A stretch of 63,869 nucleotides of DNA, counting the filler, from an uncultured bacterium (GTDB lineage Bacteria > CAYJRR01), in NCBI GenBank assembly GCA_964372275.1. It is 6 parts of 5 records of this genome, joined end to end, with 100 filler letters (N's around TTAATTAATTAA, not from the genome) between each part and the next. Parts side by side here need not be neighbours in the genome. Positions count along the whole stretch, not along the records: positions 5,062 to 21,582 come from CAYJRR010000002.1; 5 more parts are not named here. One strand, 5' to 3'. The position numbers and the translations under genes are program-made. Of the stretch, positions 8,106-18,039 are shown one piece after another (position 1 is the first letter of the stretch; every line of letters begins with the position of its first letter). The notes below the pieces were generated by a model. That model was not told the DNA's origin. It worked only from the letters and a program-made list of their open reading frames with translations, and did not search any database.

Positions 8106-9872
8106 ATGCCGCCGAACGAGCCGATCGCACCTCCGACGACCGCGCCGCGCTCGGTCACATTGCGCCGGTTGCTGACGCTGGCCCGGCCGGAGTGGCGGCG
8201 GATCGCGGCGGCGACGGCGCTGTTGGCCGTTGCCGCGGGGGCGAACCTGGCGATTCCGGCGGCGCTCCGGTCGATCGTCGACGACGCACTCCTCCGCGCC
8301 GACCGGGCGACGATCGATCGCGTCGCCATCTCGCTCCTGGCGATCGTGCTCGTCTCGGCGCTCGCCGCGGCCGGGCGCTTCTATCTCTTCTCCACCACCG
8401 GCGAGCGCGTCGTCGCCCGCTTGCGGGAGCGCCTCTACCGCTCGTTGGTGCAGCAGGAGATCGGTTTCTTCGACCAGCAGCGTACCGGCGAGCTCACCAG
8501 CCGCCTCTCCGGCGACACCGCCGTCCTGCAGTCGAGCGTCTCGGCCGATCTCTCGATGCTGCTCCGCAATCTCGCAACGGCCGTCGGCGGCGTGGTGATG
8601 CTCTTCTACACCTCGCCCCGCCTGACGCTGCTGATGCTCTCGGTCGTTCCGCCGGTGGCGATCGGCGCGGTCGCCTACGGTCGGCGGGTGCGGAAGCTCT
8701 CCAAGGAGGTGCAGGACGCGCTCGCCCGGGTCGGCGAGGTTGCAGAGGAGTCGCTCTCCGGCATCCGCACCGTGCGCTCCTTCGCCGCGGAGGAGAAGGA
8801 GGCGGCTCGTTACGCCGACGGCGTCCGGCGATCGTATCGACTCGCGGCGCGTCGGGCGGCGATGTCGTCCGCGTTCCTCGCGACCGCCTTCTTCCTCGCC
8901 CTCGGCTCGGGGGTGCTCGTGCTGTGGTACGGCGTACGACTGCTGGCCGACGGATCGCTCACCGTGGGGAGCCTCCTCTCGTTCCTCCTCTACTCGATCT
9001 TCGTCGCCGGCTCGCTCGGCGCCCTGTCTGAGCTGTGGGCCGACTTCATGCGCGCGCTCGGCGCGGCGGAACGGGTCTTCGAGCTCGTCGACCGCGTTCC
9101 GTCGATCCCGCTCGCCGGCGGCCGCGTCCTGCCGGCGGTCGACGGCCGGCTCGCCTTCGACGAGGTCCGCTTCGCCTATCCGACGCGCGAGGACGTTCCG
9201 GTCCTCTCCGGGGTCTCGTTCGATCTCGCCCGAGGTGAGCGAGTGGCACTCGTCGGAAGCTCCGGCGCCGGCAAGTCGACGGTAGCCGCCCTCCTGGTGC
9301 GCCTCTACGACCCGATCTCCGGGACGATCCGCCTCGACGGTGTCGACCTGCGCGCTCTCGATCCTTCCTGGCTGCGCCGGCAGATCGGCGCCGTGGCGCA
9401 GGAGCCGATCCTCTTCTCCACCTCGATCTCGGAGAACATCCGCTACGGCCGCGCCGACGCGTCCGACGCCGAGGTCGAGGAGGCCGCGCGCGTCGCGAAC
9501 GCCGACGCCTTCATCCGCACCTTTCCCGACGGCTTCGCGACGCAGGTCGGGGAGCGCGGAGTGCAGCTCTCCGGCGGCCAGAAACAGCGCGTGGCGATCG
9601 CCCGCGCGGTCCTGAAGGATCCGCGCGTGCTGGTGCTCGACGAGGCGACCAGCGCCCTGGATGCGGAGAGCGAGCACCTGGTGAAGGAGGCGCTCGACCG
9701 CCTGATGCACGGCCGCACCTCGTTGATCATCGCCCACCGTCTCTCCACGGTGCGCGATGCCGACCGCGTGCTGGTGCTCGAGAACGGCCGCGTGGCGCAG
9801 ACCGGACCCCATGCGCGTCTGATCGAGGAGGACGGCCTCTATCGCCGCCTCGTCGAGCGGCAGTTCGTCTAG
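8106..9872 (+). CDS. ABC exporter, fused permease + ATPase (MsbA/ABCB10-like)
   Basis: About six TM segments; GSSGAGKST, LSGGQKQRVAIARA, LVLDEATSALD, IAHRLST. Confidence 0.95.
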   Translation: MPPNEPIAPPTTAPRSVTLRRLLTLARPEWRRIAAATALLAVAAGANLAIPAALRSIVDDALLRADRATIDRVAISLLAIVLVSALAAAGRFYLFSTTGERVVARLRERLYRSLVQQEIGFFDQQRTGELTSRLSGDTAVLQSSVSADLSMLLRNLATAVGGVVMLFYTSPRLTLLMLSVVPPVAIGAVAYGRRVRKLSKEVQDALARVGEVAEESLSGIRTVRSFAAEEKEAARYADGVRRSYRLAARRAAMSSAFLATAFFLALGSGVLVLWYGVRLLADGSLTVGSLLSFLLYSIFVAGSLGALSELWADFMRALGAAERVFELVDRVPSIPLAGGRVLPAVDGRLAFDEVRFAYPTREDVPVLSGVSFDLARGERVALVGSSGAGKSTVAALLVRLYDPISGTIRLDGVDLRALDPSWLRRQIGAVAQEPILFSTSISENIRYGRADASDAEVEEAARVANADAFIRTFPDGFATQVGERGVQLSGGQKQRVAIARAVLKDPRVLVLDEATSALDAESEHLVKEALDRLMHGRTSLIIAHRLSTVRDADRVLVLENGRVAQTGPHARLIEEDGLYRRLVERQFV

Positions 9873-9926: not shown

Positions 9927-10904
9927 ATGACCGTCGCCGCTCGACAAAAGCGGGCGGAGCCGTCGCCGTCGCTTCGCCGCCGCATTCTCCGAAACATGGT
10001 CGAGAGCCGGTGCCTCGACGAGCGGCTCGTCCTGTTGTTGCGCCGCGGGGACGGGTACTTCTGGACGGGCGGCCCTGGCGAAGAAGCCTTCAACTCGACC
10101 CTCGGATCCTTCCTGAAAACGGGCCACGGTCCGGACCACGACTTCCTCCTGCCGCACTACCGCAGCTCCGCCGTCGCATTGATGGCAGGGCTGAAGTCGA
10201 TCGACTTCCTGCGGCAGATGACCGGACGCGCCACCGATCCCTTCAGCTACGGGCGAAACTTCGCCAACCACTTTTGCGATGCCACGCGGAATCTGGGCCC
10301 CGTTTCGTCGCCCGTTACTTCGCAGTTCTTGTTCGCGCTCGGAACCGCGCGGGCACAGAGGCGACGTCGTGGAATCACGGTGACGATCGGCGGCGAGGCC
10401 AGCACCCAGAGTGGTGACTTCGCGACTCTCCTCACCTGGGCGACGCGGCCGGGCGATCCGTTGCCGGTCTTGATCGTCGTCACCCACAACGGAATCGGGA
10501 TCTCCACCCGGTACCGGGACCAATGCGCCGTCTCGCCGACCGACCGGGCACGCGCCTTTGGCATCGCGGCCGAGCGCGTGGACGGTCTGTCCGTCGACGA
10601 CTCCTACGCCGTGCTCGACGAGGCATTCCGTCACGTGCGCGGCGATCGCCTGCCGTTCTTGGTCGAGGCCAAGGTCTCGCGGCTGTGGGGCCACTCCAGC
10701 TCCTCCGGGGCGACGCGGGACGTCTCCGAGGAGGACCCGCTCGACCGCGTGCGGGTTCCGAGTGCCTGGCGCAAGGCGATCGAGCGGCGGCTCCAGGAAG
10801 AGGGCCGGCAAGTCCTCGACGAGCCGCCGGTCTCGTCCGAGTCGGCCGAAGAGCACGTGTGGGGGGCGGAGGGGGCGTCGTGGCCACGCTTGCACAGGCG
10901 ATAA
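9927..10904 (+). CDS. TPP-dependent 2-oxoacid dehydrogenase E1 alpha-like subunit
   Basis: GGPGEEAF, LPHYRS, DPFSYGRNFANH, ThDP motif variant GGEAST...VTHN, RLWGHSSS. Confidence 0.85.
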   Translation: MTVAARQKRAEPSPSLRRRILRNMVESRCLDERLVLLLRRGDGYFWTGGPGEEAFNSTLGSFLKTGHGPDHDFLLPHYRSSAVALMAGLKSIDFLRQMTGRATDPFSYGRNFANHFCDATRNLGPVSSPVTSQFLFALGTARAQRRRRGITVTIGGEASTQSGDFATLLTWATRPGDPLPVLIVVTHNGIGISTRYRDQCAVSPTDRARAFGIAAERVDGLSVDDSYAVLDEAFRHVRGDRLPFLVEAKVSRLWGHSSSSGATRDVSEEDPLDRVRVPSAWRKAIERRLQEEGRQVLDEPPVSSESAEEHVWGAEGASWPRLHRR

Positions 10905-11899
10905 GGCTCGCGCTCCACCATGCCGAGACCGAACTCGGCGTGGCGGAGATATTGGGCCAGGACGTCGGCCCCCCTCTCGGTGGCGTCTTCACGTTGACCC
11001 AAGGGATAGACCGGGCGTGGAACAGCCCGCTCGACGAACGTGGCATCGTTGGAACCGCCGCCGGGCTCGCGATGATGGGAGTACGAAGCATCTGCGAGAT
11101 CCAGTTCGGCGACTACCTGCTGAACACGGTCGACCTGTTGCGGCTGATCGGGAACACCTGCTGGTCGACTCGTGGTCAGTTTCCGATGCCGATGGTCCTG
11201 CTCACCCCGGTGGGTGCCGGCATTCACGGCGGCATCTACCACTCCCATTCGGTCGAATCGCTCCTCTCGCGACTTTCCGGCTGGAAGGTCGTGATGCCGT
11301 CGACGTCCGCGGACGCCTTCGGCCTGCTCCTCAGTGCCGTCGAGGACGGAAACCCCGTCGCCTACCTCGTGCCCAAGGCGCTCCTCTACCGCTCCTGCGG
11401 ATCCCTTCCGTCCGAGCCATCCGACCTCTCGCGGCGGATCAATGCGCCGCCGGAGGGTCGGGAGCGCTGGCGCCCCGATTGGCCGCCGATCCCGCCGCAG
11501 CGAGTCCCGATCGGACCGGCCCGCCACGTTCGCGCCGGCGACTCGCTGACGATCGCCACATGGGGACGCATGGTGTCGGTTACCGAGTCGGCTCTCGAGG
11601 GAATCGAAGGCGTCGATCTGCTCGACCTGCGCACCCTGGTGCCGTTCGATCGCGGGGCGTTGCTCGACTCGGCACGGCGAACGCGCCGACTCTTGGTAAT
11701 CAACGAAGACTCGGAGCAGACGAACTTCGGGGAGCACCTGCTACGCGTCGCCATCGAGGCGTCGCCGGGAGTCCGGCTCCGCCTGATCGCCGCGCGCCAC
11801 CTTCCGGGGATCGGACTGGCGCAAGCGTTGGAGGATTACGTCGTTCCGACGGCGGACCGTATCCGGAGGGAGGTCGAAGCGATGTTGGCGTCCGGCTAG
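10880..11899 (+). CDS. 2-oxoacid dehydrogenase E1 beta-like subunit
   Basis: GTG 10880: ATLAQAIRLAL...GQDVGPPLGGVF, NSPLDERGIVG, CEIQFGDY, GGIYHSHS, DLRTLVPFD. Confidence 0.88.
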   Translation: MATLAQAIRLALHHAETELGVAEILGQDVGPPLGGVFTLTQGIDRAWNSPLDERGIVGTAAGLAMMGVRSICEIQFGDYLLNTVDLLRLIGNTCWSTRGQFPMPMVLLTPVGAGIHGGIYHSHSVESLLSRLSGWKVVMPSTSADAFGLLLSAVEDGNPVAYLVPKALLYRSCGSLPSEPSDLSRRINAPPEGRERWRPDWPPIPPQRVPIGPARHVRAGDSLTIATWGRMVSVTESALEGIEGVDLLDLRTLVPFDRGALLDSARRTRRLLVINEDSEQTNFGEHLLRVAIEASPGVRLRLIAARHLPGIGLAQALEDYVVPTADRIRREVEAMLASG

Positions 11900-11956: not shown

Positions 11957-12685
11957 TCACGCCGCCGCCGGCAGGCGCCGGCGCCAGACCTGCCATGCGC
12001 CGATCCCGGTGAGCGCGAGCGCGAACCACTGGTACGCGGTCAATCCCAGCAACGCACCGGCGATCGGTTCGCGTAGCGGCTCGGTCGCGAACCGGATGGC
12101 GCCGTAGAGCGCAAAGACGAGGAAGAGACGCCGGTCCGGGAAGCGATTGCGCCGGTGCAGCGCGTCCACCCATAGAAAGAGTGCGAACAGCGCCGCCGCC
12201 TCGACAAGTTGCACCGGGATGCGAGGCACGCCGTCGCCGAGGTCGACTCCCAACCACCGAGGGACCTCCCGACCGAAACAGCAGTGAGCTCCCCAGCAAC
12301 CGAGGCGCCCGATGGCCATCACCAGCGGGATTGCCCGGGCAAAGGCATCGCTGGTCGGTTCGCGGATTCCGGAGAGTCGCTTGAAAAGCGCGACGCCGAG
12401 GAAGCCGCCGGCGAGCGCGCCCAGGATCGACTTCGCGGAGGCGGGATGTCGAGCCACTCGCGCGGCGATCCAGCCACCGGCGAAGTAGGCGGGCACCAGT
12501 GAGCCGATTGCGCCGACAACCAGGGATGACGCCAGGACGCCGAGATGGCGGCGCTCGGACATCTTCCAGTGGCGCGAGTCGAACAGGACGATTGCCGCGC
12601 CACCGACGAGCGAGACGACCATCGCCCAGCGATAGGCCTTCGAACTTCCCGCGGCCAAGATTTCATCGTACGGTGCGCCTGACAT
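11957..12685 (-). CDS. Lgt (prolipoprotein diacylglyceryl transferase) family membrane protein, atypical
   Basis: KSILGALAGG, AIGRLGC...CCFG, RIPVQLVE, RFATEPLRE; multiple TM helices. Confidence 0.75.
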   Translation of the reverse strand: MSGAPYDEILAAGSSKAYRWAMVVSLVGGAAIVLFDSRHWKMSERRHLGVLASSLVVGAIGSLVPAYFAGGWIAARVARHPASAKSILGALAGGFLGVALFKRLSGIREPTSDAFARAIPLVMAIGRLGCWGAHCCFGREVPRWLGVDLGDGVPRIPVQLVEAAALFALFLWVDALHRRNRFPDRRLFLVFALYGAIRFATEPLREPIAGALLGLTAYQWFALALTGIGAWQVWRRRLPAAA

Positions 12686-12733
12686 TGTTGCGCGCTACGG
12701 GACCCGCCAGACGATTCGCTCGGCGGAGAAGCG

Positions 12734-13744
12734 ATGAAGACTACCGGGCCGATCAAGACGCCGGAAGCGGCAATCGAAAGCGAGGGTACGCGCACGTCGG
12801 CGGAGACGTCGTGGCCGACGGTCCTCCTCGCGGGGGCCTGCGTCGTGGGGTTCACCGCGTCGGCCGTCGCCTTTCACCGAGGGACGATCGGACTGGCTCC
12901 GGCGTTCGCCATCCACATCCTCGTCGCCTATCTCGCTTTCACGCCGATGCACGAGGCGGCGCACGGCAACATTGCACGCGGGAGGGGCGCCTGGGTCCGG
13001 CTGGAGGCGCTGGTCGGGTCAGCGTGCGCGGCGATCCTGTTCGCGCCCTTCGTCTCTTTCCGCAGCATTCACCTCCGTCACCATCGCCATACCAATCATC
13101 CGACGCTCGATCCCGATCGCTGGGTGGCTGGCAGCAATCCGCTCTCGATCGCGGCGCGTTGTCTCACGATCCTTCCCCGCTACTACGTCTGCTTCCTCCA
13201 GACCGACCGCGCGATGCGGTCGCCTCTCTGGCAGACGGGCGGGTGCATGGCCCTGTTCGCGGCGGCGCTGTTCGCCGCCGACCGCGCCGGGACTCTCGTG
13301 GCCGTGCTGGTGCTGTGGCCGGGATCTTCGCTCGCGGCTTGCGCGCTGCTCGGTTTCCTGTTCGATTGGCTTCCACACCAGCCGCATCGATGTACCGATC
13401 GGTTACGATCCACCCGCGTCGTGTTGGCGCCGATGTTGGGCGTGCTCACGGTGGGGCAGAGCTATCACCTGGTCCACCACTTGTGGCCTTCGATCCCGTT
13501 CTTCCGCTACCGCAGGACCTTCCGGCGTTCCCGGCGATTCCTGGAGGCGGCCGGATGTCGGATCGACGCGCTCGGCACGGGTTTGGGCTGGGGCGAGCGG
13601 AGCGTGAGTCCCGAGCCCGCGCCGGGAGAGCAGGTGAACCGACGACGGCTCGGCGCCGAGCCATACCCCGTCGGGGATGACGCGCCCTGGGGCGATGACG
13701 CTGCCGCCGAGACTCTTCGCACCCTCCCCGTAGACGGAGCCTAG
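12734..13744 (+). CDS. Membrane di-iron desaturase/hydroxylase (CrtR-like)
   Basis: His boxes HEAAH, HLRHH and YHLVHHLWPSIPF, plus DPD and FDWLPH. Confidence 0.85.
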   Translation: MKTTGPIKTPEAAIESEGTRTSAETSWPTVLLAGACVVGFTASAVAFHRGTIGLAPAFAIHILVAYLAFTPMHEAAHGNIARGRGAWVRLEALVGSACAAILFAPFVSFRSIHLRHHRHTNHPTLDPDRWVAGSNPLSIAARCLTILPRYYVCFLQTDRAMRSPLWQTGGCMALFAAALFAADRAGTLVAVLVLWPGSSLAACALLGFLFDWLPHQPHRCTDRLRSTRVVLAPMLGVLTVGQSYHLVHHLWPSIPFFRYRRTFRRSRRFLEAAGCRIDALGTGLGWGERSVSPEPAPGEQVNRRRLGAEPYPVGDDAPWGDDAAAETLRTLPVDGA

Positions 13745-14710
13745 GAACGGCCCGGCATAAGCGACGCGCCCATCGGGTGTTTCGACCTGGATCGGCCTCC
13801 GATCGGGCCGGTAGTCGGCCAGGATCGTGCCGAAGGCGCCACTGCCCCGACGAAAGTAGGAGAACTGATACGGCCCGTGGATCAGGAAGACGTCGGACTC
13901 GGCGACGGAGCGGTAGAGGACGAGATCGTGCATCAGCCAGCTACGCGAGCCGACGACGGCGAGCTCGACCTTCGCCCCGTCGAAGATCTGCGCCCGCTCG
14001 CCGACGGTCGAGTAGCGCACGACGCAGTAGGCGCCGATGCGCGCCCCGGGACCGACGGTTGAGCCTTCCACCACCGCCGTCGGATGGACGTCGGCGGTTC
14101 GGTGCACGTTCGACCAGGCGAGCCCCAGCTTCCGTGCGGCGCCGCGGCCCGGCGCGCCCGGTCGGAGCGCTTTGATCCAGGTCCACGGCGAACGCGCGAC
14201 GCGCGATTCGAGGTCGGCGAGGTGGGCGATCTGGTTCGCGAAGAGAGGGTCGAAGTCGTTGCGCATCGGGAGCAGCAGTGCCCGTGGCACCGCGACGCGG
14301 CAAGGGGCGGCGATTCCGCTCGGGAACGCCATCTCGTAGTGCCGCGCCGGCAGAGGAACGGAAAGGCGCTCCTCGCCACCGTCACCTCCGGCGCGCTCGG
14401 CGAACACCATGAGAGGGATCTCCTCACTCTCGAGGGCTTGCAGGGAGTAGTAGTCGCGCCAAGCGTCCGGATCGGGCTTGAGCCAAAACGACAGTCGCGA
14501 GGCCCGTCCCCGGTATCCGTCCACCGCTCGCGCGAGGAGTCGGAGCCCCGCCCGATCGAACAGGAGCGAGTCGGGGAGCTCGATCCGCCATCCCGAGGCG
14601 GCGCGGGCGTCACGAAGCGCCTCTTTCAAGTGCTCCGCCGCCGGTCGACCGAGGATCTCCCGCGCGCGGATCGCGGGGGACGCTCCCGGGTGGACGAAGC
14701 ATCCGTTCAT
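13403..14710 (-). CDS. Left-handed beta-helix (hexapeptide) acyl/acetyltransferase-like protein
   Basis: ATG 14710 overlaps the upstream stop (ATGA). Hexapeptide repeats VHRTADVHPTAVVEGSTVGPGARIGAYCVVRYSTVGERAQIF and GSVIAPGRVIPDG. Confidence 0.7.
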   Translation of the reverse strand: MNGCFVHPGASPAIRAREILGRPAAEHLKEALRDARAASGWRIELPDSLLFDRAGLRLLARAVDGYRGRASRLSFWLKPDPDAWRDYYSLQALESEEIPLMVFAERAGGDGGEERLSVPLPARHYEMAFPSGIAAPCRVAVPRALLLPMRNDFDPLFANQIAHLADLESRVARSPWTWIKALRPGAPGRGAARKLGLAWSNVHRTADVHPTAVVEGSTVGPGARIGAYCVVRYSTVGERAQIFDGAKVELAVVGSRSWLMHDLVLYRSVAESDVFLIHGPYQFSYFRRGSGAFGTILADYRPDRRPIQVETPDGRVAYAGPFLGSVYGEGAKSLGGSVIAPGRVIPDGVWLGAEPSSVHLLSRRGLGTHAPLAPAQTRAERVDPTSGRLQESPGTPEGPAVAEERDRRPQVVDQVIALPHREHAQHRRQHDAGGS

Positions 14711-15495
14711 TTCGCCCTCCACGCCGCGAACGCGGCGAGCAGGTGGGGGGCACCGGCCGACTGTGCGTTGGCGGACCGCGTGAGTTCGACACTCGGTGTC
14801 GCCGGGGAGTCGTGGTGCTCCTTGTGCAAGCCATTGTTCAGGAGGAAGTGGTTGTAGACGGCCGACGCGTACGACGTGGTGAACCCGGTGTCGTAGCGGG
14901 CCGGCGGATGCTGTCCGTAGTTCTGCAGGCCGATCAGCGCCCATCCTAGGTAGGTCATCGCCGCGTAGCCGGCAAACACCGGGACGGAGACGAGGGCAAG
15001 TGCGATCCACAACGCGGCGATCGCTGCCTGTTCGCGACGCAGGTATCGTGCCTCGTCGGATCGATTCTCGGCCGCCTCCCGTCGGAACCAGGCCACCGAC
15101 CGGGCCAATTGGCGCGGCCAGCCGAATGCGTAGCCGACCGGTTGCTGCGGGACCGGACCGTCCGGACCGACGGTCCACGTCGAGGTCGGGTCTTCCAACG
15201 AATTGACGTGGCGATGGTGTTTCCAGTGCTGCCACGCGTACCCGTGGAACGGAATCCCGAGCATCAAGGAGAACAGAAGCTCCTCGGCGGCGGAGGTGCC
15301 ACGGTGGAGCCTCTCGTGGGCCGAGACGTGGAGTGTGAAGCACATCGCGAGCGACGCCGCGACCAATGCCGTGACCGCCCGGCCCGGGGCGTCGTCGGCG
15401 GAAATTGCGAATGCGGCGAACAGGGCGGCCTGTGCAGCCGGCCAACACCAGATCCGCAGCCACGCGCCCGACCGCTCCCGCGTGACGCAGGCCAC
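14707..15495 (-). CDS. Fatty acid desaturase family protein
   Basis: His boxes HVSAHERLH, QHWKHHRH and NNGLHKEHH, plus QNYGQH; hydrophobic segments. Confidence 0.85.
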   Translation of the reverse strand: MACVTRERSGAWLRIWCWPAAQAALFAAFAISADDAPGRAVTALVAASLAMCFTLHVSAHERLHRGTSAAEELLFSLMLGIPFHGYAWQHWKHHRHVNSLEDPTSTWTVGPDGPVPQQPVGYAFGWPRQLARSVAWFRREAAENRSDEARYLRREQAAIAALWIALALVSVPVFAGYAAMTYLGWALIGLQNYGQHPPARYDTGFTTSYASAVYNHFLLNNGLHKEHHDSPATPSVELTRSANAQSAGAPHLLAAFAAWRAK

Positions 15496-15496
15496 G

Positions 15497-16906
15497 TCAG
15501 GCGCTCCGGTAGATGGGAAGCGGCGACCGGTCCGTCGAAGCGGTTCCGTCCTCGGTAGAGACGGTGGGGAAGTGCGCTCGGTCGAATACTTCGTGCAGGC
15601 GCATGTCGATGCCAGGCGAAACGATCAGCTCGATGCCGGTCTCCCCGGGGAACGACTTCGCGAGCAGGAATCGGTGGCCCTCGCCGGGCGCCAGCGTCAA
15701 GACGGTCCAGCGCGTGTCGTCGGACGGCACACGCCGATGCAGGACGGTACCGGTGTGCTCGACGCCGTTGCGCACCTGCACGTGCGCAGCGGAGACGTCG
15801 CCGCGCCAGCGGTGGGCGATTCGCTGGCCGGCAATCGATATCTCGGTCGTCGGCTTCGAGACCGGGAGTCCGACGTGCTTCACGTTGGCGTCCCGCCGGC
15901 AACGGAGGCACCGCCCCGCCGCGTCGAGTGCGAGCACCCGTGCGTTCAATCCGTAGCGGGAGACGAGCTCCTCGCCGCACCCGCGGCACCAGGTGCTGGT
16001 GACCGCCGGATCGTGCACGTTCCCGTTGTAGACGTGCTCGACCCCCATCGACATTGCGACTTCCCGTGCGCGACGCAGCCGCTCGATCGGCGTGCGCGCC
16101 CCGCCGGCCATCCGGAAATCGGGGTGATAGCGTACGAAGTGAAGCGGAACTTCCGGTCCAAGCCGGTCCAACACGAACGTTGCGATCCCACGAGCGGTTG
16201 CTTCGTCGTCGCTCACGTCGGTGACCATCAAGGTGCTGACTTCGAGGTGCTTTCCGGCGTCATAGACCTGGTGCGCCGCCTCCAGCACCGGAGCCAACCA
16301 ACCCTTGGTCAGGCGACGATAATGGTCCGGATCGACGGACTTGACCGAGATCGAGAAGATGTCGATCACCGGCAACAGCTCCTCGACCGCCTCCGGGGTG
16401 ATGAAGAAGGCCGACTTGTAGAGATTGAACATCCCCTCGCGACGTGCGAGCGCCGCGGTTTCCAGCACGAACTCGTGCCATACGACCGGGTCGTTGTAGG
16501 TCCAGGAAAGGCAGCGAATGCCGTGACGCTTGGCCGTCGCCACGATCCCTTCGGGGGTCTGCTCGACGATGTCGCGATCGGAGAGATGTTTGGCCTGCGA
16601 TGTCTTCCAGTTGTGGCAGTAGTCGCAGCTCAGCATGCATCCGATGTTTCCGAGCGAAAGGATCGGGATCCCGGGGGCGAAGTGGTTCACCGCTTCGGTC
16701 TCGATCAACTCCTCGGTGGGGTGGACCCCTTTGCCGAAATTGAACGTCACCAGGCGTCCGTCGCGATTGCCGCGTACGCCGCAGAACCCCTGCTTCCCGT
16801 CGGCAATCACGCAACGCCGTGGCGAAAGACCGCAGCGCACGGCGCCGCTGGGCAGCACTTCCTCCAGGCGTGCCGCACGGTAGCTGTCTGTCCAACGGGA
16901 AGTCAT
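15497..16906 (-). CDS. AmmeMemoRadiSam-type (AmrS-like) radical SAM enzyme with C-terminal extension
   Basis: ATG 16906. VRCGLSPRRC...GFCGVRGN, CMLSCDYCHNWKTSQ (CxxxCxxC), SWTYNDP, PLHFVRYHPDF, HVYNGNV, TWCRGC...GRCLRC, then about 120 extra residues. Confidence 0.85.
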   Translation of the reverse strand: MTSRWTDSYRAARLEEVLPSGAVRCGLSPRRCVIADGKQGFCGVRGNRDGRLVTFNFGKGVHPTEELIETEAVNHFAPGIPILSLGNIGCMLSCDYCHNWKTSQAKHLSDRDIVEQTPEGIVATAKRHGIRCLSWTYNDPVVWHEFVLETAALARREGMFNLYKSAFFITPEAVEELLPVIDIFSISVKSVDPDHYRRLTKGWLAPVLEAAHQVYDAGKHLEVSTLMVTDVSDDEATARGIATFVLDRLGPEVPLHFVRYHPDFRMAGGARTPIERLRRAREVAMSMGVEHVYNGNVHDPAVTSTWCRGCGEELVSRYGLNARVLALDAAGRCLRCRRDANVKHVGLPVSKPTTEISIAGQRIAHRWRGDVSAAHVQVRNGVEHTGTVLHRRVPSDDTRWTVLTLAPGEGHRFLLAKSFPGETGIELIVSPGIDMRLHEVFDRAHFPTVSTEDGTASTDRSPLPIYRSA

Positions 16907-18039
16907 CCGGCTTCCCTTCGCGCCGATCCTGTCAGGATTGACAACGCTCCGACGAGGTCTCGTTCGAGATCGTCCGGCTCCTCGAGGCCGAAGCACAGCC
17001 GCACGAGGCCAGGGTCGAGACCGATGCGCCTTTTCTCGTCGGCGGTGAGCGACGCGTGGCTGCCGGAGTATGGCTGGGCCACCATCGAGGTGACCGCAGC
17101 CATTCCGGTGCCGGTCGAAAAGAGACGCAGCGCCGAGGCGAACCGCGGGTAGGCGTCTTCGAGACCCGCGCGAAGCTGGAAGAATAGGATCCCTCCGTAG
17201 CCGGTTAGCTGCTTCCCGTCGACGACTGGAAGGTAGACCGTTTCGACCTCCGACCGTCCGCGTAGGAGTTCGGCCAGGAGTTTCGTCGTTTCCTGATGGG
17301 CGCGCATCCGCAGCGGAAGCGTCTGGGTACTTCGCCGCAAGAGCCACGCCGAGTGTGGATCGAGGTTCGAGCCGACATAGAAGCGCTCCTCGCGCAACCG
17401 ATCGTGGAGGTCGGCGCGGTCGGTTAGCACGACTCCTCCCATCACGTCGCTGTGGCCGGAAAGGAACTTGGTCGCACTGTGAATGGAGAGATCGGCCCCG
17501 TGCTCCAGTGGACGCTGAAAGAACGGCGTGGCCCACGTGTTGTCGACCACCACCAGGCAACGAGGCTCGGCCGCTTTTGCCTCCCGCGCAATGCGCTCGA
17601 TCTCCAGCGTGCGCAGGAAGGGGTTGGTGGGTGTCTCGAAGAAGACCATATCGGCGCCGCTGGCAAGCGCGCCCGTCTGCGCGAGGTCGACGGCATCGAC
17701 CCGGATTCCACGCGATCGAAGGCGGTCGAAGAGCCGAAACGTGCAGCCGTAGATCAGGCGGTGGACGGCCAGTCGCGAGCCGGGTTCCAGCAGCGAAAGA
17801 GCGAGTGAGATGGCCGCCATTCCGGATGCGACGGCGACGGCGTGCTTCGCCCCTTCGAACGTCCGTACGACCTCCTCCAACTCGCGGACGTTGGGGTTGT
17901 CCTTTCGGCTGTAGAAATACGGGGAGTCGGCCGCGAAGGCGCTCGATTGAAAGATCGGCGTGACGACGGGTCGGGCATCGCCGATCTGTATGCGATGGCG
18001 AAGTGCGCGCGTCGTCGCGTGGAATCGAGGATCGGCCAC
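16903..18039 (-). CDS. PLP-dependent Cys/Met metabolism enzyme (cystathionine gamma-synthase/lyase family)
   Basis: PIFQSSAF, YSRKDNP, ASGMAAI, ETPTNP, VVDNTWATP, HSATKFLSGHSDV (PLP Lys), VRLCFGLE; RBS GGAGGAG. Confidence 0.92.
   Translation of the reverse strand: MADPRFHATTRALRHRIQIGDARPVVTPIFQSSAFAADSPYFYSRKDNPNVRELEEVVRTFEGAKHAVAVASGMAAISLALSLLEPGSRLAVHRLIYGCTFRLFDRLRSRGIRVDAVDLAQTGALASGADMVFFETPTNPFLRTLEIERIAREAKAAEPRCLVVVDNTWATPFFQRPLEHGADLSIHSATKFLSGHSDVMGGVVLTDRADLHDRLREERFYVGSNLDPHSAWLLRRSTQTLPLRMRAHQETTKLLAELLRGRSEVETVYLPVVDGKQLTGYGGILFFQLRAGLEDAYPRFASALRLFSTGTGMAAVTSMVAQPYSGSHASLTADEKRRIGLDPGLVRLCFGLEEPDDLERDLVGALSILTGSARREAG

Follow-up and report, generated by a model that had tools for sequence, protein, structure and literature searches.

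A radical SAM and PLP enzyme gene cluster of uncultured bacteria that probably makes an unusual membrane-anchored lipid or lipopeptide

A block of four tightly packed genes lies on the minus strand of a window of 63,869 nucleotides (the whole stretch of DNA that was analysed, from an uncultured bacterium, assembly GCA_964372275.1). The genes encode a pyridoxal phosphate (PLP) enzyme of the Cys/Met family, an AmrS-like radical S-adenosylmethionine (SAM) enzyme, a small membrane enzyme with histidine boxes, and a protein with a left-handed beta-helix; a paralogue of Lgt, the lipoprotein diacylglyceryl transferase, is encoded close by. These five families are abbreviated here as PLP, rSAM, Des1, LbH and Lgt-like, and the loci, genomes and proteins that were compared carry the prefixes L, G and P. 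Judged from its sequence, the probable product of the cluster is an unusual lipid or lipopeptide that is anchored in the membrane and derives from a methionine-type amino acid. The genes of the block, in order of transcription, are as follows.

16903..18039, minus strand: PLP, Cys/Met-family PLP enzyme, first gene of the block, 378 aa; PF01053 (Cys_Met_Meta_PP), 298.7 bits
15497..16906, minus strand: rSAM, AmrS-like radical SAM enzyme, 469 aa; matches Radical_SAM and exceeds the TIGR04337 cut-off of 220 bits with 281.3
14707..15495, minus strand: Des1, small membrane His-box di-iron enzyme (desaturase or hydroxylase), 262 aa; PF00487, 64.2 bits
13403..14710, minus strand: LbH, two-domain beta-helix protein, 435 aa; weak Hexapep/LbH matches, with the conserved part stopping near 13573

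All four open reading frames (ORFs) are intact and lie at the coordinates of the original prediction, and the junctions between them are also as claimed: an ATGA overlap at 16906-16903, a TGA-c-GTG arrangement with the single base 15496 between the genes, and a second ATGA overlap at 14710-14707 (minus strand). The PLP gene has a GTG start preceded by a good ribosome-binding site (RBS), GGGAGGAG, and no terminator-like site was found on the minus strand within the block, although this is weak evidence. The GC content of the window is about 70%, with the lowest bin (0.639) at 16-18 kb, and the third-position GC content (GC3) of the four genes is 0.77-0.84, compared with 0.85-0.95 for many other ORFs of the window. 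Both features hint that the block was possibly acquired by transfer.

The co-occurrence of these genes goes beyond chance, because synteny and gene fusions are conserved in other genomes. A locus search with the rSAM returned 45 loci with full-length relatives, 43 of which, mostly actinobacterial, have no other cluster genes within 10 kb. In L003, from a Planctomycetota metagenome-assembled genome (MAG), and L044, from a Bacteriovoracaceae MAG, the rSAM, PLP, Lgt-like, desaturase and beta-helix genes are all found together. A single-protein locus search with LbH gave only one weak locus (L046), and a profile built from three LbH sequences was used instead. This profile retrieved 47 loci, all from MAGs, two of which duplicate L003 and L044. 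According to the record titles, they come from Planctomycetota, Gammaproteobacteria, Geobacteraceae, Elusimicrobiota, Aquificaceae, Bdellovibrionota, Bacteroidota and Verrucomicrobiota. The four core families occur together in 23 of 47 distinct related loci, with contig ends cutting most of the others. This synteny check, in which a failure of the genes ever to co-occur was to count against them, finds the four families recurring together across about eight phyla, in most cases along with an Lgt-like protein and a thiamine-dependent 2-oxoacid enzyme, and the earlier view of a dedicated, co-inherited unit is sustained both by this recurrence and by natural fusions of its parts. The LbH family is nevertheless rare, being present in two of 301 sampled Planctomycetota genomes.

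Two forms of the cluster can be distinguished. In the canonical form (33 loci), all five genes lie within the fetched stretch in 19 loci, and contig ends again cut most of the rest. The usual order, on one strand, is rSAM-PLP-Des1-Lgt-like-LbH; the PLP gene is directly 3' of the rSAM gene in 27 loci, and the Lgt-like gene adjoins the beta-helix gene in most canonical loci. The window differs in that PLP precedes rSAM and the Lgt-like gene is displaced, but the content is kept, and retention of content through rearrangement argues for functional coupling. In 13-14 loci, an IOR-type 2-oxoacid:ferredoxin oxidoreductase, with an alpha subunit of about 609 aa and a beta subunit of about 190 aa, is encoded ahead of the rSAM gene. 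The variant form, with 14 loci in Bacteroidota, Bdellovibrionota and Verrucomicrobiota, keeps LbH, Des1, IOR, rSAM and PLP; instead of an Lgt-like gene it has genes for a FabA-like protein, a ketosynthase (KS), a ketoreductase (KR), an acyl carrier protein (ACP), a reductase and an MMPL exporter. The variant operon of L083, for instance, runs through 14 genes: Acyl_transf_3, FabA-like, unknown, KS, KR, ACP, LbH, reductase, Des1, MMPL, IorA, IorB, rSAM and PLP. The end of the preceding ACP gene and the beginning of the beta-helix gene overlap in these variants. Comparison of the canonical and variant forms shows that the four genes of the window are exactly their common part. We lean, if only slightly, towards a rare accessory operon, spread by horizontal transfer, of which these four genes are the invariant core; it would assemble or modify a membrane-anchored product and would have no housekeeping role in sulfur amino-acid metabolism.

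Fusion proteins provide a second line of evidence. Of 158 LbH homologues at E <= 1e-10, the best 120 include a 641-aa Lgt-like-LbH fusion (P0060) and a 667-aa Des1-like-LbH fusion (P0065), and all but one of those with a source name bear the label "hypothetical protein". Twelve of 46 longer rSAM relatives cover 91-97% of the window enzyme, its C-terminal domain included: P0133 joins rSAM to Cys_Met_Meta_PP, P0126 joins an AMP-binding enzyme to rSAM, and ten join rSAM to PF27533. The other 34 are canonical AmrS fused to AMMECR1 and nearly always also to Memo, and these cover only 61-71%. The PF27533 domain, of about 480 aa, is fused to a cluster-type rSAM with its C-terminal domain and carries TSGSTG and SGK motifs, from which alone we take it to be an adenylating enzyme like PaaK or F390 synthetase. 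Among P0124-P0135 (about 933 aa; ten with PF27533), one is annotated as from a Hodarchaeota archaeon and two as from candidate division KSB1.

The choice of fusion partners divides the system into two modules. The soluble module consists of the rSAM, the PLP enzyme and an enzyme that forms acyl-CoA, which is a thiamine-dependent E1 alpha/beta pair in the window and an IOR-type or adenylating enzyme elsewhere. The membrane module consists of the His-box enzyme, the Lgt paralogue and the beta-helix protein.

The rSAM has the features of its superfamily, with a PF04055 match of 59.8 bits and an invariant C90-x3-C94-x2-C97. Invariant among 34 aligned members are C25/C32/C42, C90/C94/C97, C307/C310/C333/C336, W367, H375, R412 and D442-R-A-H445-x-P447, and the layout comprises an N-terminal Cys3 motif, CX3CX2C, a CxxC...CxxC pair and, at the C-terminus, a beta-sandwich domain that is likewise conserved. 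The core of the AlphaFold2 (AF2) model (pLDDT 86.5) resembles pyruvate formate-lyase (PFL) activase (Foldseek E 1.5e-13, TM 0.81). In a maximum-likelihood tree, for which the outgroups were only two canonical AmrS and one very long-branch paralogue, 34 cluster-type and actinobacterial rSAM form a clade with 100/100 support on a branch of 5.2 from canonical AmrS, and the enzymes of the window and L003 nest within a mainly actinobacterial subclade. In L048 (1745-3138), the rSAM gene matches as two overlapping pieces in different frames, probably due to a frameshift or an assembly error.

Genomes of relatives distinguish this enzyme from AmrS in the same way. Against TIGR04337, the canonical AmrS of G002 and G004 reach 635-639 bits, and copies of the cluster type 279-325 bits; G002 and G004 hold both types, with the cluster type at 304-308 bits, and in G004 the canonical copy adjoins Memo and AMMECR1, far from the cluster copy. 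Neither AMMECR1 nor Memo was found in G001, G002 or G005 (a complete Kitasatospora genome), and G001 and G005 have the cluster-type rSAM only. In the related genomes that were tested, therefore, the enzyme is not an ordinary AmrS present as the sole copy, and its designation as an "orphan" is justified by the separate clade and by its occurrence in genomes without AMMECR1 and Memo. Nor is there a partner near it, as the original prediction also said: tblastn of the whole window with two AMMECR1/Memo pairs from related genomes gave no homologues at E <= 0.01. A search of plasmids with the rSAM returned canonical amrS only, at 31-38% identity.

The actinobacterial members of the rSAM clade occur in two contexts. 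In the first, genes for a cupin, an AGT/PhnW-like aminotransferase, an AurF-like oxygenase and an RraA/Dps fusion adjoin. In the second, the rSAM gene stands ahead of genes for a PapB-like SPASM protein, a HemN/ChuW-like protein, CpaM and an HgcAB-like fusion, with amidohydrolases and LysE/RhtB-type exporters near, which suggests an amino-acid-like product. From its sequence neighbourhood, this second context suggests that the rSAM may act on an amino acid or peptide independently of lipids. In L007 (9920-17173; also in L001, L009 and L021), the rSAM gene opens an operon with a PapB/SCIFF-like SPASM protein, and the HgcAB-like corrinoid fusion scores 359 bits (cut-off 285). An ArsL-like rSAM, acting by 3-amino-3-carboxypropyl transfer, was also considered and dropped, given that the architecture of BgArsL, described as a protein of 428 aa with CX3CX2C at residues 194-201 (PMC8552651), differs and that nothing links the two.

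The PLP enzyme falls below the cut-offs of all 25 listed NCBIfam equivalogs, including those for cystathionine gamma-synthase (CGS), cystathionine gamma-lyase (CGL), cystathionine beta-lyase (CBL), methionine gamma-lyase (MGL) and O-succinylhomoserine sulfhydrylase (OSHS); the best scores are 252.8 bits against 600 for NF006097 and 239.8 against 549.7 for TIGR01328. Aligned to solved CGL-like chains, it keeps YSR, SGM, DNT, the SATK lysine and the VRL arginine. Across 30 members, the family conserves Y97-G98-C99, K191, D166, R347 and Y43/R45, such that the Schiff-base lysine, the aspartate for PLP-N1, the carboxylate-binding arginine and the residues that bind the phosphate are present. The YGC motif has been described as an indicator of MGL specificity (PMC11568061). 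The enzyme is not the sole housekeeping MetB or MetC in G001 and G004, given that higher-scoring family members are found in both.

These results bear on the simplest alternative, in which the block is a chance adjacency of housekeeping genes: an ordinary MetB, MetC or MGL, an AmrS with its partners elsewhere, a fatty-acid desaturase and a sugar-nucleotide enzyme. That the rSAM passes the TIGR04337 cut-off would fit such a view, but the synteny across about eight phyla, four kinds of fusion, the separate rSAM clade, the coexistence of other lgt and Cys/Met copies with the cluster in related genomes, and the failure of the PLP, Lgt-like, E1 and LbH proteins to reach any equivalog cut-off all speak against it. 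Chance adjacency is very improbable, and the synteny and fusions already contradict it.

In the membrane module, Des1 has three His boxes (HX3H, HX2HH, HX2HH) and passes PF00487 (64.2 bits, cut-off 29.7), with no NCBIfam match. The residues H56/H60/H64, H90/H93/H94, H196 and H224/H227/H228 are conserved in 25 family members. Only the first 379 or so residues of the LbH protein are conserved; the last 55 or so are modelled as disordered and are antisense to the tail of a neighbouring gene, Des2. The window protein itself is below the Pfam cut-offs (Hexapep 17.6 against 27), homologues pass (30.5, 33.5), and the LbH profile gives weak LpxD/LpxA matches. In the AF2 model (pLDDT 86.4), an N-terminal domain with a nucleotidyltransferase-like fold is predicted to precede a highly conserved left-handed beta-helix, and the best Foldseek matches are ST0452, GlmU and GMPP (E 8e-12 for ST0452/GlmU). 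Among 32 aligned members, the N-terminal invariants are P130, L156 and N159 only, and G-x-G-T-R, which we take to be the nucleotide loop, is not conserved in that domain; invariant residues within the beta-helix include H209, E215, H278 and D299. The original assignment as an acyltransferase needs to be changed in that the two-domain architecture is like that of GlmU and ST0452 rather than that of a plain acyltransferase.

The following features of the window surround the block.

8106..9872, plus strand: ABC exporter (transmembrane and nucleotide-binding domains), 588 aa, upstream of the E1 genes; ABC_membrane 228.7 bits, ABC_tran 118.7 bits
9927-10904, plus strand: E1 alpha, thiamine-dependent 2-oxoacid dehydrogenase; Pfam E1_dh, Transket_pyr and Transketolase_C for the E1 alpha/beta pair
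About 10880-11899, plus strand: E1 beta, same Pfam set, start read from the sequence
11957..12685, minus strand: Lgt-like membrane transferase, 242 aa; PF01790, 62.2 bits (cut-off 24.9)
12734..13744, plus strand: Des2, a second, CrtR/GntB-like His-box enzyme, 336 aa, convergent with the block; PF00487, 98.6 bits
18153-18668, minus strand: ORF of 171 aa immediately ahead of the PLP gene; signal peptide at the N-terminus, strong RBS, no Cys

The Lgt-like gene is part of the unit, which thus exceeds the coordinates first given, and the E1 alpha/beta genes probably belong to it as well. The E1 proteins score far below the cut-offs of the NCBIfam models for the pyruvate dehydrogenase E1, and copies 62-67% identical adjoin the cluster in two Planctomycetota loci (L050 and L051). 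By family assignment, the IOR-type enzyme appears to take their role in other clusters, in a swap of one thiamine diphosphate (TPP) enzyme for another. Membership of the ABC exporter is uncertain, with only weak matches of about 30% identity near related clusters, in L068 and L093. The operon may open with the 171-aa ORF, unless that ORF has nothing to do with it; beyond the ORF lies a divergent UDP-GlcNAc 2-epimerase gene. Des2 is specific to the window, as no counterpart above 50 bits was found in related loci; its NCBIfam scores are 144 bits for CrtR (cut-off 475) and 41.6 for GntB (cut-off 380). The 3' end of Des2 overlaps the tail of the LbH ORF by 342 bp on the opposite strand, and the gene sits between LbH and Lgt-like, where the closest relative, L003, has two genes for small Cys-containing peptides.

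The GntB match, weak as it is, belongs to a family annotated as acting on free arginine, and it can be read in favour of a soluble product, namely a secreted vinylglycine antimetabolite like rhizobitoxine. The PLP enzyme would couple a homoserine-derived unit to a nucleophile, the His-box enzyme would desaturate it like RtxC, and LbH would N-acetylate it for self-protection. There is precedent for such a pairing, as the C-terminal domain of RtxA is described as like O-acetylhomoserine sulfhydrylase and as working with the rhizobitoxine desaturase RtxC (PMC3222319), and the beta-helix fold is closest to ST0452 and GlmU, which use acetyl-CoA. On the other hand, the beta-helix protein is fused to membrane proteins, the Lgt paralogue, fatty-acid synthase (FAS)-like module and MMPL exporter indicate a lipid, and no serinol-type aminotransferase is present. 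A product of this kind is unlikely.

The Lgt-like protein passes the Pfam LGT model but scores 45.1 bits against 334 and 23.4 against 118.9 for the NCBIfam lgt equivalogs. All four cluster-bearing genomes that were tested have a higher-scoring lgt match at a distance from the cluster, and in G001 and G004 this match exceeds the cut-off. On these sequence scores, it is a paralogue and not the housekeeping Lgt. The catalytic network of Lgt is reported to include R143, Y235, R239, E243 and R246, together with the signature motif GRLGNFINGELWG (PMC4728403). Equivalents of E. coli E202, Y235, R239, E243 and R246 are aligned and invariant in the Lgt-like family, within a domain match of 18.7 bits. 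In all 19 aligned members, GRLGNFINGELWG becomes GRIGCxxQHCCYG (window residues 127-138), with invariant C130, H134, C135 and C136, and this C-x3-H-C-C pattern places a group of Cys and His residues where the active site of the membrane enzyme putatively lies.

In most canonical clusters, the gaps beside the Lgt-like gene encode one to three small proteins of 45-116 aa. These begin with a polar part, after which come about 20-25 hydrophobic residues, a Cys and a tail of 2-11 residues, often C-x(0-3)-G-G-x-F/W. Such genes include the following, and others.

L003, 13396-13674 and 13883-14188, minus strand: two small Cys-peptide genes
L069, 8483-9220, plus strand: small Cys-peptide genes
L067, 3513-4177, plus strand: small Cys-peptide genes
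L061, 8871-9249, plus strand: small Cys-peptide genes
L044, 1335-1562, minus strand: small Cys-peptide gene

A strict filter for such peptides gave the following counts.

Canonical loci (33; 456 kb): 28 hits, spread over 19 of them
Actinobacterial loci (43; 837 kb): none
Variant loci without Lgt-like (14; 228 kb): none
The window (64 kb): none

One of the 19 matching loci, L055, is doubtful and its match lies far from the cluster; looser inspection adds eight loci. From their occurrence across these sets, the peptides track the Lgt paralogue, and they resemble miniature prolipoproteins. Their presence in most relatives that have the paralogue points to a lipopeptide and not to a free lipid. 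A predicted complex of the Lgt-like protein of L069 with the adjoining 59-aa peptide, run without controls, scored 0.00 and 0.00, which speaks neither for nor against binding.

The main rival explanation is a free amino-lipid with no peptide, which was also the reading of the original prediction. The soluble module would make an unusual, possibly thiol-bearing amino acid, which LbH would N-acylate and the Lgt paralogue would S-diacylglycerylate to a Pam3Cys-like product; the His-box enzyme would desaturate it, and the ABC or MMPL protein would export it. No convincing Cys-peptide accompanies the Lgt paralogue in the window, L062 or L073, and L055, with its doubtful and distant match, may be added to them. 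The variants have the FAS-like module, the ACP and the MMPL exporter with no peptides, and the overlap of their ACP gene with the beta-helix gene start also counts in favour of this explanation, as do the LysE/RhtB-type exporters and amidohydrolases beside the actinobacterial rSAM clade. Against the amino-lipid stand the strong enrichment of Cys-terminated membrane peptides exactly where the Lgt paralogue is present and the lack of a demonstrated thiol-forming step; moreover, we know of no Lgt-family enzyme that acts on a small molecule. Such an amino-lipid is possible, though we would not bet on it.

The mechanism that we propose would begin with the rSAM, which may modify a methionine- or homoserine-type amino acid, or its SAM-derived four-carbon unit. 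The MGL-like PLP enzyme, with YGC, an intact lysine and the carboxylate-binding arginine, could carry out gamma-elimination or gamma-replacement on the rSAM product to give a 2-oxoacid or a gamma-substituted product, and the thiamine enzyme or ligase could convert the resulting 2-oxoacid to an acyl thioester. Either this or a fatty acyl group would then be passed by the membrane-tethered beta-helix domain to a membrane-held acceptor, and the di-iron enzyme would desaturate or hydroxylate the product. The Lgt paralogue, with two catalytic arginines of Lgt, would add a diacylglyceryl group to a thiol. In most related clusters, this thiol is probably the lipobox-like Cys of the small co-encoded membrane peptides, such that a ribosomal mini-lipopeptide would result; in the window, the acceptor could be a peptide encoded elsewhere or a small molecule. 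We hold the general picture with a little more belief than doubt, and any single step with much less confidence. In its fullest form, the proposal is a new ribosomal route to lipopeptides, in which the Lgt paralogue diacylglycerylates the lipobox-like Cys of a peptide, the rSAM/PLP pair, the thiamine enzyme and LbH add a methionine-derived acyl or amino-acyl group, the di-iron enzyme desaturates it, and the rSAM clade performs a new reaction on a four-carbon amino-acid unit; this we put forward tentatively, as a conjecture that may well prove wrong.

Several observations weigh against the lipopeptide mechanism. The window has the Lgt paralogue, but six-frame searches with strict and relaxed patterns found no Cys-peptide gene in it, and such a gene is also missing in L062 and L073; tblastn of 12 related small peptides against the window gave noise only. 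The variants keep the four core genes without the Lgt-like gene and the peptides, so the core chemistry cannot depend on a peptide. In 43 of 45 rSAM loci, the clade occurs without other cluster genes, such that its reaction is not tied to lipids. The equivalent of R143 in the Lgt-like family aligns only in a 1.9-bit domain, and N146 and E151 of the Lgt signature are replaced. The E1 pair has no adjoining E2 or E3, leaving it with no E2 partner nearby. His-box enzymes need O2, and radical SAM clusters are O2-labile. All of the chemistry is inferred from the families to which the proteins belong. Topology is a further difficulty, given that E. coli Lgt is reported to act at the periplasmic face (PMC4728403) and a beta-helix transferase using acyl-CoA or acyl-ACP must be cytoplasmic, which makes the order of the steps and their topology uncertain.

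Two minus-strand ORFs of the window, 12695-12964 and 13019-13387, were considered as peptides and rejected, as they are Arg-rich antisense frames of Des2.

If the proposal is right, a large, unstudied branch of AmrS-like rSAM, present also in actinobacterial biosynthetic operons, would gain a function and a context in which it can be tested. Lgt, so far regarded as a housekeeping enzyme for lipoproteins, would turn out to have specialised paralogues that act on small substrates of their own, and a new class of membrane lipid or lipopeptide would be added, found across many phyla of uncultured bacteria. Should the peptides be confirmed as substrates, the cluster would be a new class of system, beyond accessory biosynthetic clusters for lipids or lipopeptides. 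The fusions define which enzymes to assay jointly, and the question is open to heterologous expression.

Compared with known systems, the cluster combines familiar parts in an unfamiliar way. With the AmmeMemoRadiSam system it shares an rSAM core above the TIGR04337 cut-off, the region of the N-terminal Cys motif, the PFL-activase-like fold and about 34% identity to canonical AmrS over residues 22-343. However, the window enzyme is longer (469 against 365 aa), with about 125 extra C-terminal residues that form a conserved beta-sandwich with DRAHxP; the cluster type is a separate clade on a long branch, is fused to PLP or adenylating domains rather than to AMMECR1 or Memo, and lacks both of these in the window, G001 and G005. 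The PLP enzyme has the same fold and catalytic residues as MGL, CGL and CGS, with best PDB E-values of 2e-65 to 8e-64 and YGC kept in the family, but its scores are roughly half of the equivalog cut-offs, it is additional to higher-scoring Cys/Met copies in G001 and G004, and it is fused to or encoded directly after the rSAM. The LbH protein, like GlmU and ST0452, has an N-terminal alpha/beta domain and a C-terminal left-handed beta-helix; unlike these and LpxD, it has no conserved nucleotide loop, if we take the motif correctly, its conservation is concentrated in the beta-helix, and its family occurs fused to membrane proteins.

Lipoprotein maturation by Lgt, LspA and Lnt is another system for comparison. 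The cluster Lgt-like protein keeps the equivalents of Y235, R239, E243, R246 and, apparently, R143, and most relatives, though not the window, co-encode small proteins in which a lipobox-like Cys comes after a hydrophobic stretch; by analogy, LbH could fill the N-acylating role of Lnt. The paralogue nevertheless fails the lgt equivalogs and has a Cys/His-rich signature motif, no more than 2-11 residues follow the Cys of the peptides as a "mature" part, a beta-helix protein of cytoplasmic type stands as acyltransferase in place of an Lnt with its nitrilase fold, and the rSAM, PLP and di-iron enzymes have no counterpart there. The rhizobitoxine pathway likewise pairs a Cys/Met-family PLP enzyme with a membrane desaturase-type enzyme on an amino-acid-derived product, as far as it is described in PMC3222319. 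That pathway, as described, has no radical SAM, Lgt-like, beta-helix or TPP enzyme, and its product is a soluble enol-ether amino acid. A search of the literature, which did not extend to most subscription journals or supplements, found no description of the cluster, in keeping with the earlier statement that no described cluster with such a combination was known. Judged by sequence family, each piece is a divergent paralogue of a known family and no described system combines them; the nearest functional analogies are the RtxA/RtxC pair and lipoprotein maturation.

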